A DNA stretch of 64,000 bases from an uncultured bacterium (lineage in GTDB: Bacteria; Zixibacteria; MSB-5A5; GN15; FEB-12). A model generated the notes under the pieces. It was not told the origin of the DNA. It did no database searches and saw only the letters and a program-made list of their open reading frames with translations. Positions 43,192 through 49,896 of the stretch are shown piece after piece. The stretch is from positions 2,986-66,985 of the forward strand of contig CBDVDR010000009.1 in assembly GCA_965372795.1 (NCBI GenBank), in the 5' to 3' direction. Position 1 is the first letter of the stretch; every line of letters starts with the position of its first letter. The translations under genes and the position numbers were made by a program.

Positions 43192-46053
43192 TTATATCCG
43201 GCTTTCACCATACAAATCGTTTTGAGGTGACGGCGTAAACCTTTTAACGGAAACCGACTGTTCTCGGGTGTCAAAATTTAAAGCCAGCTCCTGAAGCTCG
43301 TAATCCGGATTATCCTTGAGATTTCCAAAATCGATCTTAATTTTAGATGGCTCAACATTAAGCCGGTAATAACCGAGCCGATTATTTTCGATAATTTGCC
43401 AGTCCATCCTTAAACCGGAATTCAGCTCGTTTTTCATCCGATAAAGATATCGCGCCTGATTGAAACCAACCTCGATATCCTCTTTGTAAATCCAGCCCGC
43501 CCCGTCAGAAATCCGGGCACATGCTAGCTTGGTAAAATACTTAAACGACTTCCCGGTCAGACGAACTGGAAAACCGTTTATCTTAATCAAATACCGCTCC
43601 CGCTCATAACCGCCATCAATCTCAATTAATTCCGGTTTGGAAAACAGTACTGCCCCGCCATCATTAAGCCCCACATCCTTCATTGTGGTTTCGGTCCTCA
43701 CTTGAACCTCCTCTTTAATTAAATCTGTTTTATCATTAACTATCTTTGACTTATCCATATTGACTATTACGCTGTGAATATCTTCGACGGTCATATTACA
43801 TAACTGCGAAAGCTCCTCAACGCCTGCTTTCTGCAGGGCGATATAGTCATTTCTATTCAAAATATTTTTAAAATACTTCTGCCATTCCTGCCAATTCGAG
43901 CTCATCCCCCAGCGCAGTGAAAAAGCGTATTTCTCCAACTGCTCTCTGGTTGTCTGATTTTGCTCGGTAACCTCAACCAGACTTGCCAGAGCCAGAACCA
44001 GATGAGCCGCCGTCTCTCCCAAATAGGTGATCTGCCCCAGATGAATCTGAAAACGTTCTTCTATCCGCCGTACCGGCATCATGGAAGACCATTCACAAAG
44101 CAGTAAAACTGCCTTCAATGATGCTGCCCCGCGATAGGTCAGTGGCTCATTCCGGTGACTTTCCGGTAACAGCCAGCCGGCATCACTCAAAAGATGATCG
44201 TAACGGCGATAAAGAATTTTCAAAGGTTCATTTTCCGCCAGTTCATATCGGGACAGAATCGACGGCGGAAGACTCCAGCAGGGACCGCTTAACGCCAGCG
44301 AAACCCAGCCGGCTAAACTTTCAGGACACCCTCGCCTTGATTTTAATTTCCGTAAATAGTAAACCGCCTCACGAACCGACAAACCGGATTTTGAGGTCAC
44401 ATCACCCAATTTAGTTGGCGACAAAGTCTCTTTATTTTCGACATTATCATATTTTAAAAAACTCTTATCAATCAGCAACTGCACCGCCTCGTCAAAATCA
44501 AAAGCACTGATCGCCTCACTCTCATTTAAACGGGCATGTAAAGTCTGTCGATATAGCTCGACAAGAGAACCGGAGCTATCGGCAAGGCGCGAAACGACCA
44601 TATCAAGTATCCAGTCAATCAGCGGTATCCCGGAAAAGGCTGACTTCATCGGCTCCTGCTGTTCTCCAGCAATATAATTATTCCATAGCACATCACGATC
44701 AAATGAACTCTCCGCCAGTACCACCGCCCGGCCCGAACAGTTGCTTTGATTGCCAATCAAACGACCGGCACGACCCGTCATATTATCAAATTCCGCCCGG
44801 CTTACCGGCACCAGCATCGGCTGATCATGGTACTCGCCCGAAACATATTTTACCGTCTCCAGATAAACCGTGTCAACCGGAAGATTCACCCCCATAGCTA
44901 AAGTAGTAGTTGAGATTATTACTCTAATCTCTTTATTTGCAAAAGATTGCTCAACGATTTGCCTTTGACCTAAAGTAAGGTCGGAACTGTGAAAGGCTAT
45001 TCCGCGACTCATCACCTGGCACAATGAGCGAATCAAAAACGACGGTTCTTCATCCTCAAGTTGCTTTATTGCCTGTGAAGCGCTCCCCCAGTTCACCGAG
45101 GCAGCCAGCCGGAAAGCACAATTGACCGTATCCATTCTTGACTTCAAAAAGATCAGCGTCGAACCTTCGGCGGCTTTGATCTGCTTGATAAATGAGTCAA
45201 ACAAATTATCACCGGGATCATCACCCGGAAAGGGCTCGCTTCCGTCAAGATGACTGTTGAAAGATCGATAACAGAATTTACCCCCGGCAGCCACGCCCCG
45301 AATCAAATCAACCGGACGGGAACTCTCCTCAACCAGCGTTGCCTCCATCCATTCAGCCAATTGCTCACCCGAACTGGCGTAACCAGTGTGACCGGCATAG
45401 CCAGCGTGACCGGCATAACCAGTGGGATTGGCATAGCCATCATTATCACATTCGATGCTGTTATTGATTACTGCCGAAAGTCCTATCAGCGATGGCTTGT
45501 AGACCGAGGCTTTAATTTTGGTCAGCAGGCGCTCAAGAATCGCTCCTCTTCCCGGCTCGCTGATAGTCTGGATTTCATCGATCAGAACCATGCCGATATT
45601 TTTCAGATTGTCCATTGAGGAAGTCAGAAGCATATCAAGTTTTTCATAGATAGCAACCGCAATTTGATAATTGCCGGAGCTGAAAGCTTTGTCATTTTCA
45701 GGATGATCGCCGGTAACAATCAGACATTTGATCCCCATGGATGAATAGGTTTCATTGAACAGACGATATTTTTGTTCCGCCAGAGATTTGAGCGGAAACA
45801 GCATAATTACTTTCTGACGTACCGTTAAAGCGCGCATAGCCGCCATCTCAGCACAAAACGATTTCCCCGATGAAGTCGGAGCCGCAATCAGCATATTAAC
45901 CGATTGATAACGGCTGTTACCGGTCGGTCGGCCAATCAGACCTTTGCGGACAGCTTTGCTTTGTACCGGAAGCAAGGCTTCGCCCTGGCGTTTCTGCCAG
46001 ATATCAATGACCCGTTTCGGGATTCCATACTTTTCAAGTTCAATTAGTTGCAT
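43192..46053 (-). CDS. Ski2/Hel308-like SF2 helicase fused to a C-terminal OmpR-type winged-helix-like domain
   Basis: LLPVQ, APTSSGKS, PLKSLA, TGD, DEIQ, STTTLAMGVNLP, MTGRAGR; ratchet/HhH-like region; tail LTGKSF..L..GWI..NQARYLYRMK..IENNRLGYYRL. Confidence 0.88.
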   Translation of the reverse strand: MQLIELEKYGIPKRVIDIWQKRQGEALLPVQSKAVRKGLIGRPTGNSRYQSVNMLIAAPTSSGKSFCAEMAAMRALTVRQKVIMLFPLKSLAEQKYRLFNETYSSMGIKCLIVTGDHPENDKAFSSGNYQIAVAIYEKLDMLLTSSMDNLKNIGMVLIDEIQTISEPGRGAILERLLTKIKASVYKPSLIGLSAVINNSIECDNDGYANPTGYAGHAGYAGHTGYASSGEQLAEWMEATLVEESSRPVDLIRGVAAGGKFCYRSFNSHLDGSEPFPGDDPGDNLFDSFIKQIKAAEGSTLIFLKSRMDTVNCAFRLAASVNWGSASQAIKQLEDEEPSFLIRSLCQVMSRGIAFHSSDLTLGQRQIVEQSFANKEIRVIISTTTLAMGVNLPVDTVYLETVKYVSGEYHDQPMLVPVSRAEFDNMTGRAGRLIGNQSNCSGRAVVLAESSFDRDVLWNNYIAGEQQEPMKSAFSGIPLIDWILDMVVSRLADSSGSLVELYRQTLHARLNESEAISAFDFDEAVQLLIDKSFLKYDNVENKETLSPTKLGDVTSKSGLSVREAVYYLRKLKSRRGCPESLAGWVSLALSGPCWSLPPSILSRYELAENEPLKILYRRYDHLLSDAGWLLPESHRNEPLTYRGAASLKAVLLLCEWSSMMPVRRIEERFQIHLGQITYLGETAAHLVLALASLVEVTEQNQTTREQLEKYAFSLRWGMSSNWQEWQKYFKNILNRNDYIALQKAGVEELSQLCNMTVEDIHSVIVNMDKSKIVNDKTDLIKEEVQVRTETTMKDVGLNDGGAVLFSKPELIEIDGGYERERYLIKINGFPVRLTGKSFKYFTKLACARISDGAGWIYKEDIEVGFNQARYLYRMKNELNSGLRMDWQIIENNRLGYYRLNVEPSKIKIDFGNLKDNPDYELQELALNFDTREQSVSVKRFTPSPQNDLYGESRI

Positions 46054-46181
46054 AATGTCTCGTCCCTCTCTGTTCCTGCGTTGTTCACAGACTTCGTCTG
46101 ATTATTCTCTTCGTCTGGTTATTCCAAACTCCTATTTTTCAAAAATTCCAACTCCCCCGTTTAGCTCCTATTCTCAGAAAA

Positions 46182-46258
46182 CATTAAAGCCACCCAGTGG
46201 CTCAACGCCAACTCGTGACTCATATACTACCCAGTGGCATTAAAGTCACTCAGTGGCT
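46182..46258 (-). repeat. Triple short hairpin repeat between the Zn-ribbon gene and the helicase
   Basis: CATTAAAGCCACCCAGTGGCT (46182-46202), CTACCCAGTGGC (46227-46238), CATTAAAGTCACTCAGTGGCT (46238-46258). Confidence 0.7.
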
Positions 46259-46464
46259 TAAATGCTACAGCTTTCAAATCCACAACCCGGACAACTGTGA
46301 CAGCTCCCCAATCTGACCATACCGCTTCCGCAATCGGGACAGGAACCATCGTTGAGATAGCTGTAATTTTCGCTCTGATTATCTTCTTCGTATCCCCCGC
46401 GATTCACACCAAACATCATCCCTGTATTAAGAGCCATCTCTTCGTTGTTATTGTAAGATTGCAT
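46258..46464 (-). CDS. Small Zn-ribbon protein (CPxCG-x8-C-x2-CxxCG-x3-C)
   Basis: AGGAG RBS 6 nt before ATG 46464; CPDCGSGMVRLGSCHSCPGCGFESC resembles the C-terminal Zn ribbon of class II RNR (NrdJ) proteins. Confidence 0.75.
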   Translation of the reverse strand: MQSYNNNEEMALNTGMMFGVNRGGYEEDNQSENYSYLNDGSCPDCGSGMVRLGSCHSCPGCGFESCSI

Positions 46465-46506
46465 TGACATCTCCTTTGCCTTATTAGTTCAAATCAGCGT
46501 AAAACC

Positions 46507-46535
46507 ATAATACTGCACATTTGTGCACTTGTCAA
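46507..46535 (-). promoter_or_regulatory. Sigma70 promoter with a palindromic operator in the spacer
   Basis: Minus strand TTGACA-N17-TATTAT; TGCACA-TT-TGTGCA at 46514-46527. Confidence 0.75.
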
Positions 46536-46686
46536 GCAGGATTTACAGATTTAATACTTATTTTTTGAGATTATTAGATAAGTTATTGGTAGAGTGGGGA
46601 TTGGTTGATTTGATTGTCGGATTATTTTTGCTTCTGATGCGAGAATCCACCCTGCATTTACTTAGTAGCCATTAATCAGTGCAGGA

Positions 46687-46748
46687 GAGTAGGTCAGGAG
46701 GCGTGCCCTCCTGACATCTTCGACAACATCACAGGGGCTCTGTCCTAC
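46687..46748. repeat. REP doublet (GTAG...CTAC), left flank of cassette
   Basis: GAGTAGGTCAGGAG-GCGTGCC-CTCCTGACA hairpin plus inverted unit ATCACAGGGGCTCTGTCCTAC. Confidence 0.75.
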
Positions 46749-46810
46749 TTTTACTGCATACTGAGATAAGGAAAATGATGGACTTATCCACAGAAAATAG
46801 TAAAAAATGA

Positions 46811-47716
46811 TCAAACCTTATTATGATTAGACGAGGCTTTATCCGCCCAAAATGTTATATCTTCTTCATTATCTACTGATAAATATATATTTCCATTACT
46901 TCTAGTTGTTAGAATTCCCTTAGCTTCGTATATACATTTGTCCGAAAGATTTTTATATTTTATACCATCAGAGTATTGTAAATATTGCGAAGAAACATCT
47001 GATGTGTCTTTATCAAATTCACTAGCTTTTGAAAGAATTGATATTTTCACGTTACCCGTTAAATCAAATAACGTGGATGGAAATCCTGATTTGTGACCAT
47101 GATGTGGAGCAATAAGAATATCCAGTCCCTTCTTCATTGTCTCAACAAAGCCTTTGTCATTATTAGCTAACCATTCCCAACCAGCAAATTCTAAATCGCC
47201 TCCATATAATACTTTGATACCTTTAAACTCAAAATATCTCAGTATACTTGAATTATTTTTTATTTTTTCAGAAAGTTTCTCATCTTTTTTTACAACATCC
47301 ATAGGTATTTTAAAAGTCTTATGAATATCAAACCCCCAAAGAACTTTCTCTGGATTATTACCTCTATATTTTTTATTTATATATTCTTTATATTCGCCAT
47401 GAATAGATTCATTTGTGGGAAATTCTTCATAATCTCGTTTATGCAACAAATAGGGTTCAAATTTTTGTTTCACTTTCTTAGCATTTTTAACATGATCATC
47501 ATCAGGATGAGTAATATGAAGCAAGGCTAACGGATATATAAATCCATTCTGTGTTCTATACGATTTAATACCTAACCATTTTTTAAGGGTTCTTATCTGA
47601 TCAATCGGACATTTTTTTTCACTGTGCGATCCACAATCTACCATCATAGCATACCCACTTGGAGAGGCGATTATGCTACAAGCAGCATTATTAACATCGA
47701 AAATTATTATCTTCAT
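46811..47716 (-). CDS. ComEC/Rec2-type metallo-beta-lactamase-fold hydrolase
   Basis: Probable start MKIIIFDV at 47716; MVDCG, ITHPDDDHV, NNSSI, GGDLE, APHHGHKSG, TTRSNGNI. Confidence 0.85.
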   Translation of the reverse strand: MKIIIFDVNNAACSIIASPSGYAMMVDCGSHSEKKCPIDQIRTLKKWLGIKSYRTQNGFIYPLALLHITHPDDDHVKNAKKVKQKFEPYLLHKRDYEEFPTNESIHGEYKEYINKKYRGNNPEKVLWGFDIHKTFKIPMDVVKKDEKLSEKIKNNSSILRYFEFKGIKVLYGGDLEFAGWEWLANNDKGFVETMKKGLDILIAPHHGHKSGFPSTLFDLTGNVKISILSKASEFDKDTSDVSSQYLQYSDGIKYKNLSDKCIYEAKGILTTRSNGNIYLSVDNEEDITFWADKASSNHNKV

Positions 47717-47724
47717 AATCAACG

Positions 47725-48378
47725 CTACTCTTTCAAGTTCAACATAACTGTTTTGAAAACTAACCCCCTGGCAATGCCTCTGCTTCTCCAAAGGAACAAC
47801 AGGAATACAGCGACACTTACCCCACCCAAATAAACATTGTTGTTAATAAACAGTACTATGCTAATGATCATAAAGTCTACCATTATCACACGAGCAAATA
47901 AATAGCTTCTATTGGCAATCTTGACCTCATCTGAATTACTCACATTCGCATAAAGTTTCCAAAAGATTCCTTGTGATATGCTGTTATCCTTCTTTGATCT
48001 TCCAATGAATATTGGCATATCAGAGTAATCAGATTTAATAATTGTGTCATATTCTTCAGAGAGATTCAGCCTGTCAATAATAGCAAGCCTGTTTTGTTCA
48101 TTCTTGACAACCGGATTGTCTTTGTAAAGAAATACTTGAGAAGGTCTTCTGCATCTAAAAAATAAATCAATGACAAATTCAAGCTCATGAGATACTATTT
48201 GTAATATTTCACCAGTTATAAACGCACAACAGAAAAACAGAAATGTATAAAAGACATCCAATTTTGCGTCTAGCAAGGGAGTAATGCTATCCCCGTAAAT
48301 AAAAAAGAGTGTCGCAAGTAACAAGCCACCAGGCATTACTCGGGTCATTAGCTCATCTATTGTAAAGTTGCTTATCAT
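47725..48378 (-). CDS. Uncharacterised four-TM membrane protein
   Basis: Two N-terminal and two C-terminal hydrophobic helices around a soluble loop; RVMPG motif; stop 8 nt before the MBL start. Confidence 0.75.
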   Translation of the reverse strand: MISNFTIDELMTRVMPGGLLLATLFFIYGDSITPLLDAKLDVFYTFLFFCCAFITGEILQIVSHELEFVIDLFFRCRRPSQVFLYKDNPVVKNEQNRLAIIDRLNLSEEYDTIIKSDYSDMPIFIGRSKKDNSISQGIFWKLYANVSNSDEVKIANRSYLFARVIMVDFMIISIVLFINNNVYLGGVSVAVFLLFLWRSRGIARGLVFKTVMLNLKE

Positions 48379-48691
48379 AAATCTCTATCACTATTAGAAT
48401 TAAATCCAAGTTGGGCAGGGTCCCTGTGATCCTGCTATTTTAATTTTTTTCTTTAGTAACTTTTCTACGCACATCAAAGATAACACAATCTTCTATGTTT
48501 GTAAAGAATCTTGAGTATTACAAATTCCCCACCAATTCACTGATGAATCAATTCTTACACCTATTAATAAAAAGAGTAACGGTAAGTTATGTCTAAAACC
48601 CCAACCAAAAAAAACAAGAAATCACACAATGCGAAAAATCACAGAAAATCCCAAAAACCACGTTTAAAGTACCGTAACATTAAAAGTAACA

Positions 48692-48950
48692 AAACGAACC
48701 CATTTTCACTGTACAAATAATCACCACAATGACTTACAGCGAAAACAAGGGCTATTAAGGATAATCACACAGTTGGCGGCAGAATTCGTAGGGCAGAACC
48801 CCGCCTTTGGCGGACTATTAGCCTTTAGCGGTTCTGCCAATTTGTCAGGAGCGCAGGGCTCCTGACCTACTCAAACTACAAAACACAAAAGTGAGCAAAC
48901 GAACCCATTCTCATTGTACAAAGAATCACCACAATGACTTACAGAGAAAA
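48692..48950 (+). repeat. 54-bp direct repeats enclosing a REP doublet (right flank of cassette)
   Basis: 48692-48745 and 48897-48950 match at 50/54; inside are GTAGGGCAGAACC..GGTTCTGCC (48788-48838) and TGTCAGGAG-CGCAGGG-CTCCTGACCTACTC (48843-48872). Confidence 0.8.
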
Positions 48951-49065
48951 AATGAAGTATTTGAAAAAAAACATACGATGTATGCCTTAGGAGAAATCAC
49001 ACCGTGTGTGCGCCAGAATAAACCACACGAAGTGTGCACGAAGTATATCAAAGTGGCAATGCCAC

Positions 49066-49096
49066 AAAAAAGGCACCTCTTTCGAGATGCCTTTTC
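49066..49096 (-). terminator. Intrinsic terminator after the tonB operon
   Basis: AAAAAAGGCACCTC-TTTC-GAGATGCCTTTT. Confidence 0.75.
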
Positions 49097-49158
49097 ATAT
49101 TTCATATTCCGCTATGCGGAATCAATCCCACCGCGTGGGGTCAATCCCATTATATGGG

Positions 49159-49896
49159 TTATCCGTCTGTAAGTTCGAATTCTACCTTATAAGTCACCCA
49201 GACCTTGACCGGACGGCCATTCTGGATACCGGGTTTAAACTTACATTTATAAGCCGCTTTAACAGCCGATTCATCAAGAGAGGTTACGCCGGATGTTTTT
49301 CCAACGATAGCTTTCATGACTTCACCCTCTTCATCAATCAGCGCACTGACCCAGACCAAACCGGTAATACCGGCTTGCTTTGCCAGACGAGGATATTTCG
49401 GAGTATGCTGATAAATCATTTCCGGATAAATTTCTACCGGCACAAAATCGGTCGGCGACGGAAGAAATTCATCATCACCAATATCAACCACAATATCGCC
49501 GTCCCCATCAGACGCTTGAATATCCGGGGCAACGATCTCAGCCAGATCTTCACGAGATGCAATAACAACATCATCATCAAGAACCTCATCATCAGCCACC
49601 GGTTTTGGAATACCTACTTTCGGCATTGCCACATTCGGCTGACTGACCTGAACCTGAGGCGGTCTTTTTGAAACACTGGGAGGTGGTCCCAGATCGGCAA
49701 CAGTTTTAATAACCACTGCCTGAGCAATAAATTCGTCGTCTCCACCTACTGAGCTTACAATCCATGAGACAAGCAAAATAGAAAAAACCAAAGCCAGTGT
49801 AAATACGGTTCCAAGCAGGAAATTTCGCTGGTATTTTGATTTTAGCTCAAACGCTCCATAGGGCGAGTAGATGGCACTTTCATGTAGACCTGCCAT
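49159..49896 (-). CDS. tonB: Energy transducer TonB
   Basis: YGAFELK N-terminus, single TM, Pro-rich linker, YPRLAKQAGITG.V.V.ALID..G.V, FKPGIQNGRPV. Confidence 0.92.
   Translation of the reverse strand: MAGLHESAIYSPYGAFELKSKYQRNFLLGTVFTLALVFSILLVSWIVSSVGGDDEFIAQAVVIKTVADLGPPPSVSKRPPQVQVSQPNVAMPKVGIPKPVADDEVLDDDVVIASREDLAEIVAPDIQASDGDGDIVVDIGDDEFLPSPTDFVPVEIYPEMIYQHTPKYPRLAKQAGITGLVWVSALIDEEGEVMKAIVGKTSGVTSLDESAVKAAYKCKFKPGIQNGRPVKVWVTYKVEFELTDG

Follow-up and report, generated by a model that had tools for sequence, protein, structure and literature searches.

Did the hairpin repeats that flank a two-gene cassette move it, or do they belong to the site at which it arrived, and what do its two genes do? 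These questions are raised by a stretch of 64,000 nucleotides (nt) from an uncultured bacterium (GTDB lineage Zixibacteria; MSB-5A5; GN15; FEB-12; assembly GCA_965372795.1, contig CBDVDR010000009.1), here called the window, in which the genes for a membrane protein of 217 amino acids (aa), TM217, and for a hydrolase of the metallo-β-lactamase (MBL) fold lie between a helicase operon and tonB, bracketed by repetitive extragenic palindromic (REP) hairpins. A preliminary description had read the locus as REP-delimited cargo moved in trans by a REP-associated tyrosine transposase (RAYT), and possibly as an undescribed two-gene defence system. Our analysis leads to another view of how the pair arrived: a foreign two-gene module probably entered a variable, REP-rich spacer, by insertion or by exchange, and the REPs of that spacer are the host's own. 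As to its function, the evidence tips slightly toward an anti-phage or anti-plasmid module. As it stands, the locus is an islet of the ordinary kind, acquired horizontally and sitting at a variable site.

The gene pair and the variable tonB-orf70 interval

The window corresponds to positions 2986-66985 of contig C9 in a source genome (G000) of 3.35 Mb, 69 contigs and 38.0% guanine plus cytosine (GC); in what follows, C1, C2, C8 and the like are contigs of this genome, G001-G034 are its relatives and L numbers are extracted loci. Read along the minus strand, tonB is followed by 780 nt of non-coding DNA, an open reading frame (ORF) of 217 aa, a gap of 8 nt, an ORF of 301 aa, a further 340 non-coding nt, an ORF of 70 aa, the helicase and Lon. 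The genes that form and border the interval are these:

49159..49896, minus strand: tonB (Pfam TonB_C; synteny in relatives), last gene of a conserved exbB-exbD-exbD-tonB block and right border of the variable interval
47725..48378, minus strand: protein of 217 aa with four transmembrane (TM) segments (P0002; from the translation)
46811..47716, minus strand: MBL-fold hydrolase of the ComEC type, 301 aa, start ATG at 47716 (P0001; from Pfam, PADLOC and fold)
46258..46470, minus strand: orf70, small Zn-ribbon-like protein of 70 aa, first gene of a conserved orf70-helicase-Lon block and left border of the variable interval

The AT-richer two-gene operon of the preliminary description, with its 8-nt gap, its THPDDDH motif and no mobility gene close by, was found as claimed. 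The AT-rich cargo segment is 1.65 kb long and holds two co-oriented genes, with a cargo GC of 0.33 that places the interval at the 5th GC percentile for its own length; across 46750-48700 the GC content is 0.26-0.38, compared to 0.40-0.52 in the flanking genes (helicase and tonB). Neither a transposase nor an integrase was seen among the neighbouring genes in the window.

That the helicase-tonB interval would hold other cargo or none in related genomes was borne out by comparison, with the blocks on either side conserved. The helicase is present in 25/25 relatives, the order exbB-exbD-exbD-tonB ... orf70-helicase-Lon is kept in most of the 10 relatives' loci examined, and orf70 lies upstream of the helicase in all 10 (tblastn). 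The MBL was matched in 2 of 40 relatives, both times by weak partial matches of 31-35% identity, and the cassette is single-copy in the source genome. The gap between tonB and orf70 is a bare spacer of 0.5-0.8 kb in G015 and G014, holds a second tonB in G003, G004, G010, G013 and G005, and holds unrelated genes in G009 and G011. G005 carries an alternative cargo (L023:6965-10236) of two ORFs (348 and 628 aa) that belong to no Pfam family, located between the second tonB and orf70. Since the GC content is low, presence in relatives is patchy, the flanks are conserved and the interval is variable, the genome comparison shows the pair to be foreign here and acquired horizontally.

REP hairpins around the pair and across the genome

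The hairpins flanking the pair have the properties of REPs, namely a GC-rich imperfect palindrome, a 5' GTAG, dispersed extragenic copies and inverted doublets. In this region we distinguished the following units:

46689..46717, plus strand: REP type A, subfamily GAGG...CCTC, left outer arm; closest copy at C8:54281-54311 (97% over 31 nt)
46728..46750, minus strand: decayed inverted REP, b-like, CTAC facing the cargo; 83% complementary to 48408-48430
48410..48436, plus strand: REP type b, slightly decayed copy of the third type GTAGGGCAGGATCCCTGTGATCCTGCC; head toward the cargo, 31 nt ahead of the TM217 start codon
48567..48961, no strand: mosaic of dispersed host repeats, pieces of which recur on many other contigs (blastn)
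48788..48838, plus strand: REP type B, long-loop hairpin, left half of the right doublet; GTAGGGCAGAACC...GGTTCTGCC unit, -14.5 kcal/mol
48843..48870, minus strand: REP type A, subfamily GAGC...GCTC, right outer arm; 100% identical over 31-32 nt to two copies on C2 and one on C27

The inverted 30-nt copies noted earlier at 46687-46716 and 48843-48872 are indeed identical at 27/30 positions (90% complementary). Within the window the pattern GTAGGTCAGGAG-N7-CTCCTGAC occurs at these two sites alone (0 expected; 100 shuffles), and GTAGG REPs were found nowhere except around the cassette. As single-stranded DNA (ssDNA), both outer A copies form a stem of 9 bp closed by a loop of 5 nt (-9.7 and -10.0 kcal/mol; equalled by 0/200 shuffles). 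The compensatory swap that had been noticed in the stem is real, the ninth pair being G-C in one copy and C-G in the other. Each of the two copies has closer relatives elsewhere, and the swap marks the divide between two REP subfamilies that both have further members; it is thus a family trait and not a sign of local co-evolution. Both A subfamilies are also present in other genera.

Each outer copy had also been assigned to a doublet. This holds clearly on the right, where the doublet of 98 nt has three more genomic copies (C20:53449, C10:90873 and C1:207309), but on the left the partner at 46728-46750 is badly decayed (-1.8 kcal/mol; 14/200 shuffles fold equally well). A decayed unit had been placed near 48410-48437 as well, and we recovered it at 48410-48436 (-6.0 kcal/mol; 4/200 shuffles fold equally well). 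The two decayed b units directly adjoin the cargo, one 60 nt past the MBL stop codon and the other 31 nt ahead of the TM217 start, and both turn their GTAG heads toward the genes.

A unit of 75 nt, of a family termed D1, stands at 48682-48756 and again at 48887-48961, on either side of the right doublet (84% identity). We rejected its reading as a local duplication or an att site, the unit being a member of a dispersed repeat family. This family of ~75-nt repeats (core ...AACGAACCCATT.TCA.TGTACAAA.AATCACCACAATGACTTACAG...) often adjoins REPs and has no Rfam match in the window; further copies lie at C1:284593-284649, C17:48178-48241 and C4:211399-211462, and on C12 and C23.

Genome-wide, a hairpin follows GTAG at 124 of its 10,833 occurrences (1.1%), compared to 0.28-0.45% for six control tetramers (49-138 hits, the tetramers being commoner). 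With hairpin rules of our own making, 89 GTAGG units in 62 clusters were counted in the 3.35 Mb after filtering. The REP-A 27-mer (GTAGGTCAGGAG-N7-CTCCTGAC, up to 2 mismatches) is present in 19/25 relatives, where the reversed control pattern gave 0 hits, and it reaches into other families of the order, in which the helicase orthologue is just 36-55% identical. Conservation of a REP sequence over such a range looks unusual, as judged from these genomes.

A RAYT gene, for which a search of the genome had been proposed, is present at C1:111466-111987 (NF047646, 90.5 bits compared to a cut-off of 80), with a b-type GTAGG REP 167 nt upstream. Around the same gene, within L003:1150-2010, stand four copies of another hairpin repeat, 45 nt long and without GTAG (CTGTCGGGTCACAATTTTTGCAAGCAAAAATCAAGACCCAACAGAAC); the cognate repeat of the RAYT may be either the GTAGG REP or the 45-nt repeat. 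A protein of 324 aa (L001:562-1536, on the 1.8-kb contig C52) also has an N-terminal Y1 domain of the RAYT/IS200-like kind (65.8 bits, below the cut-off of 80); its C-terminal part resembles the DNA-binding end of DnaA, and a broken copy is found on C43.

The preliminary description had conceded that dense REPs could flank a gene pair by chance. This objection fell away, as REPs are sparse (89 units in 3.35 Mb) and bracketing proved to be a real genome-wide pattern. Neighbouring REP clusters 0.4-3.6 kb apart form 13 pairs, compared to 3.3 expected under uniform placement, and 0/5000 simulations reached 13; for their length, 8 of the 14 intervals so bracketed do not rise above the 6th GC percentile. 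Besides the TM217-MBL locus there are seven other AT-rich islets of 1.7-3.5 kb between housekeeping genes, among them:

C1:150477-154586, C1:280823-284577, C3:193875-196379, C17:26044-31158, C20:30269-32171 and C20:51699-53924: AT-rich islet loci (L064, L065, L068, L070, L072 and L073)

The contents of the islets comprise NB-ARC (STAND-like), LRR-Roc-COR (ROCO), AbiEi/AbiEii, a KAP NTPase (PDC-S20/QatA-like), DUF4238 together with DUF5677, and proteins of no family, and they are flanked by lepA, cdaA, hisS, queA and other housekeeping genes; the contents of two bracketed intervals are ordinary genes. The NB-ARC and DUF4238 islet genes were each found in 0/25 relatives. The inner REPs of the eight AT-rich islets are oriented minus/plus in 3, plus/minus in 3 and minus/minus in 2, the count for the TM217-MBL locus being based on the decayed b units. 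Single genes tightly bracketed by REP-A, mostly without Pfam families, were also seen in G004 and G025.

How, then, did the pair come to stand between REPs? In the explanation first proposed, a RAYT would bind the flanking REPs on ssDNA, cleave the inverted copies and move the 2.1-kb segment as an oversized REPIN-like unit. The genome does hold a RAYT gene with a b-type REP beside it, the outer A units face opposite ways with their GTAG ends outward, which is the arrangement of a REPIN (an element built of an inverted REP pair), and islets are bracketed by REP cluster pairs beyond chance. In addition, the TnpA-REP of Escherichia coli, as described in the available part of PMC3333891, cleaves ssDNA at C|T in CTAC, also at sites >400 nt from a bacterial interspersed mosaic element (BIME), and exchanges strands. 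The cassette, however, exists in one genomic copy, and its outer REPs come from different subfamilies and are each nearer to copies elsewhere. No GTAGG hairpin adjoins the cassette homologues at any of 35 genome or 37 metagenome loci (0/72), and GTAGG REPs are found in the orthologous tonB-helicase region of four other genera (G002, G004, G005 and G013) without TM217-MBL cargo. The inner REPs show no consistent orientation across the eight islets, and no target-site duplication surrounds the cargo, a single direct repeat of 18 nt (83%) being taken as chance. The available portions of PMC3390384 and PMC3333891 contain no description of a RAYT moving genes. On these grounds we abandoned the claim of a REP-delimited cargo moved in trans by RAYT and consider such mobilisation highly improbable. 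Known REP, BIME and REPIN-RAYT systems resemble the locus in their 5' GTAG, palindrome, extragenic copies, inverted doublets and genomic RAYT, but the elements are described, in the parts of the literature available, as gene-free and ~100 nt long, and here the REPs belong to the host lineage and not to the cargo; nothing observed at the locus points to movement of the 2.1-kb interval as a whole.

A second possibility is that REPs act as landing pads or as portable homology, so that REP-flanked DNA from related donors, or any DNA entering at REP hairpins, is integrated or swapped by host recombination and islets arise without a dedicated recombinase. The same REP-A 27-mers recur among relatives of other families, the 13 close cluster pairs and 8 AT-rich bracketed intervals exceed expectation, the two islet genes tested are missing from all 25 relatives, and single genes are bracketed by REP-A in G004 and G025. 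In G005, moreover, a GTAGG REP directly adjoins the first ORF of the alternative cargo, in the corresponding place upstream of orf70, and REPs are reported as targets of insertion sequences in the accessible text of PMC1525189. On the other side, the closest homologues of the cassette are in unrelated phyla and lack REPs, so a donor need not carry them; 27-30 nt of homology is little for an exchange of the RecA type; and REPs may just accumulate in long unconstrained spacers that insertions have made. In Pseudomonas, as far as the available part of PMC3390384 goes, REPs are a mark of old core regions, whereas recent islands form REP deserts, a pattern that fits passive flanking equally well. 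We hold the landing-pad explanation to be unlikely. A fuller version of it seems more doubtful still: an order-wide REP family would provide shared landing pads, with defence or accessory islets of 1-4 genes captured or swapped between REP units, either through cleavage by RAYT at those CTAC/GTAG heads which adjoin the cargo or by recombination on portable REP homology, and TM217-MBL would be one such cargo and at the same time a new, functional two-gene defence system. If landing pads of this kind did exist, they would amount to a recombinase-free cassette system for defence genes.

The insertion or exchange of a foreign module at a spacer rich in resident REPs remains the explanation we prefer. 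In this scheme the cargo would have been inserted or exchanged at a REP-rich intergenic hot spot, the REPs would not be the ends of a transposable cassette, and they might secondarily terminate transcription or insulate the cassette from the promoter next to it. Several observations sit uneasily with this. The nearest genome, G001 of the same genus, has a helicase that is 66% identical, and its contigs break in the region and offer no close empty site: the tonB contig ends 157 nt after tonB, the helicase contig begins inside orf70, and an overlapping contig runs into a carboxyltransferase-like gene (named by eye from its sequence). A search for public sequencing runs that contain 46300-49300 returned none. 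The tight bracketing by b units leaves a promoter no room within the foreign DNA. The hairpin rules of our REP census miss decayed units, both b units here among them. Excision by RAYT between two inverted REPs is chemically conceivable, given what the available part of PMC3333891 reports of TnpA-REP, and the non-random link between REPs and islets is unexplained by REPs that are merely resident. REPs may either accumulate in insertion hot spots or help to create them, and the link to islets, together with the conservation of REPs across genera, makes this question testable in a little-studied lineage.

The two proteins and their partners in other phyla

What the pair does was approached through its proteins. 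The MBL narrowly passed Pfam Lactamase_B (24.7 bits) and matched the PADLOC model PDC-M48B nearly end to end (E 9.3e-20, 69 bits; residues 26-306 of the 326-aa ORF against 5-276 of 291 in the model), with weaker PADLOC matches to LmuA and RTasMBL; against the NCBIfam enzyme 6A-MBL (NF058524) it scored 46.1 bits and did not reach the curated cut-off of 220. Residues H70, D72, D74, H75, D174, H205, H206 and H208 are invariant in 20 homologues, and the metal-binding residues are retained in the MBL family. The AlphaFold2 (AF2) model of the protein (predicted local distance difference test, pLDDT, 87) has as its best fold in the PDB the MBL domain of ComEC (9ic4; E 4.8e-10, TM-score 0.63/0.70, Foldseek) and as its second-best the phosphorylcholine esterase Pce. 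The best PDB match by sequence is likewise ComEC/Rec2 (E 0.0012, hmmsearch), with a common NNxS...GDxE...APHHGxKS stretch, and the name ComEC-type MBL hydrolase is a fair one. A weak PHROGs match to a tail protein (E 5e-4) was disregarded.

TM217 consists of two TM hairpins around a soluble middle part of ~85 residues, with conserved polar residues in the second helix (AF2 model, pLDDT 86). A hydropathy scan of its homologues found 2-4 hydrophobic segments at matching places, 4 of them in five homologues. The protein belongs to no family in Pfam, PADLOC, NCBIfam or PHROGs, its fold has no match in the PDB at E up to 0.001, and in the ESM Atlas it retrieved unnamed clusters only, with recognition below the usual mark. 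We collected 59 homologues, and among the 68 representative clusters of the family (longest 302 aa) there is no fusion of TM217 with MBL. A complex prediction of MBL with TM217, both supplied as alignments, scored 0.00 without controls and speaks neither for nor against binding.

For the MBL we obtained 305 homologues at E up to 0.001, and those that are 52-69% identical are spread across phyla: phyla of the Candidate Phyla Radiation (CPR), Bacteroidales, Hyphomicrobiales, Alpha- and Gammaproteobacteria, Lentisphaeria, Opitutales and Elusimicrobia. At 11 of 35 genome loci the gene immediately upstream of the MBL encodes a TM217 homologue. At metagenome loci, which were found with the TM alignment, an MBL follows within ~8-54 nt of TM217 in 31/37 cases, and in 25/25 contigs with >=900 nt of room; the 6 loci without a match have <=583 nt after the TM gene. 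This metagenome scan missed the closest TM relatives (72-77% identity), its best hit being 58% identical. Two MBL subclades, one at 52-64% and the other at ~27% identity, are both paired with TM217. Judged from gene order, the pair is a fixed unit in many phyla. A TM217 family without a library entry or a relative in the PDB is yet locked to a ComEC-type MBL across phyla.

The MBL also keeps other company. Its partner is a true PDC-M48A at L041, L047, L049 and L051 (E 1e-43 to 1e-48), a TM protein of 198 aa at L035-L037 and a patatin-like lipase at L045 and L055. We do not claim homology among the three types of TM partner, for which profile comparison gave probabilities of 1.9%, 36% and 3.2%. 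At L045:2327-7073, L038:3390-5939 and L055:6904-8912, 2-3 MBL paralogues are stacked with the patatin-like lipase and small unknown ORFs, an arrangement which suggests that these loci could be larger variants of the system. In two CPR genomes alone (L029:6384-7052 and L031:6629-7279), a gene for an S24 (LexA/repressor-like) peptidase lies directly upstream of the pair and could encode a regulator or a third component.

Four known or candidate systems invite comparison. The canonical MBL motif is HxHxDH. In our protein it reads HxDxDH (THPDDDH); Asp takes the second position, which sets this protein apart from ComEC as well as from canonical MBLs. ComEC/Rec2 is the best match in both structure and sequence, and in both cases an MBL is associated with a membrane component; ComEC, however, is one long polytopic protein with a competence domain, whereas the MBL of this locus is encoded on its own as a soluble protein, next to a partner without a Pfam match. 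PDC-M48 is likewise a two-gene arrangement of a small TM protein (PDC-M48A, with 4 TM segments) and an MBL, and members of the same MBL family stand elsewhere beside true PDC-M48A. TM217, in contrast, has no PADLOC match even at E 10, reaches 1.9% against PDC-M48A by hhalign, is longer (217 compared to ~165 aa) and is always upstream; PDC-M48 is itself a candidate. The protease-activated MBL double-stranded DNA nucleases (dsDNases) of Avs, Hachiman, DRT and related systems are defence-linked MBLs with a remote homology to ComEC and RNase J, our protein has the weak LmuA and RTasMBL matches, and the accessible part of bioRxiv 10.1101/2025.11.14.688446 describes such defence-linked MBLs as Zn-dependent dsDNases. 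They differ in that no protease or sensor gene stands beside the pair in the window, where the partner is a membrane protein. To the 6A-MBL system of Pseudomonas aeruginosa the likeness is the weak enzyme match far below its cut-off; that system includes ubiquitin-related parts, according to the available portion of PMC13276650, and none were seen among the neighbours here.

The claim of an undescribed two-gene defence system stood in part. The pair is foreign and fixed, has defence and mobility genes among its neighbours and brings a TM family that is unlisted, but its MBL already figures as the candidate PDC-M48B. By these family searches the pair is a variant of a candidate kind already flagged, with an unlisted family as TM partner. 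The searches by profile, structure and neighbourhood that had been recommended thus yielded the PDC-M48B match, the ComEC fold and a set of neighbours. At 7 of 26 genome loci a defence system lies within three genes (type I restriction-modification (RM), AbiL, Septu, a Mokosh-like helicase or PycTM), and at 8 of 26 an integrase, serine recombinase or relaxase is nearby. On the proposed model, the MBL would be a metal-dependent nuclease or phosphodiesterase, and the membrane protein would tether or gate it at the inner membrane or would itself act as a membrane-damaging effector. The swap of partners with lipases and other TM proteins favours an effector role; exchangeable membrane effectors are the pattern of CBASS and Pycsar.

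The rival view gives the pair a role outside defence, as a membrane-associated phosphodiesterase that might process incoming DNA in the manner of ComEC or trim the envelope in that of pneumococcal Pce. The top folds are those of these two proteins, and envelope genes are among the neighbours (glycosyltransferases and MBOAT at L033, UDP-glucose dehydrogenase at L048). Such a role fits poorly, however, with the patchy spread across phyla at 55-69% identity, with the absence of the pair from almost all relatives, with the exchange of the partner for patatin or other small TM proteins, and with RM, AbiL, Septu and recombinases adjoining the pair; TM217 has no Pfam match and hence no similarity to the ComEC competence domain. 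We think this role rather unlikely and lean, with reserve, toward defence. Four points temper that leaning. A defence or mobility gene within three genes was counted at 11 of 26 genome loci, a count without a background control, and the neighbours at the other 15 are ordinary or cannot be named. The 69-bit match to PDC-M48B is one to an entry without a curated cut-off, and the PDC entries of PADLOC are candidates only. Among the papers that could be searched we found no experiment on defence by this pair or by PDC-M48, and no publication naming PDC-M48. As a candidate minimal two-gene defence module the pair is nevertheless testable, and it offers a way into a ComEC-like nuclease role at the membrane.

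Promoters, helicase and orf70

Around the interval, three further features were annotated:

43192-46053, minus strand: Hel308/Ski2-like helicase of 953 aa
46507..46535, minus strand: strong sigma-70-like promoter of the orf70-helicase operon (TTGACA-17-TATTAT, 11/12 matches)
48477..48505, minus strand: promoter-like site that could drive the TM217-MBL operon (TTTACA-17-TATCTT with an upstream TG, 9/12; consensus match only)

Promoter-like sites are as numerous in the region as in shuffles. An Rfam scan of 46000-49500 (E up to 1) returned a sub-threshold snoRNA match alone, which we took as chance. The protein encoded by orf70 has no Pfam family and shows a weak resemblance to the C-terminus of a B12-dependent ribonucleotide reductase. 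The promoter of orf70-helicase sits within a motif that is conserved in genus G002 too, the ACTGCACATTTGTGCACTTGTCAAGC stretch being common to L081. In G002 itself (L081:6871-7600), repeats that include a REP-A doublet fill the stretch from the helicase start to the promoter motif, and orf70 looks disrupted there.

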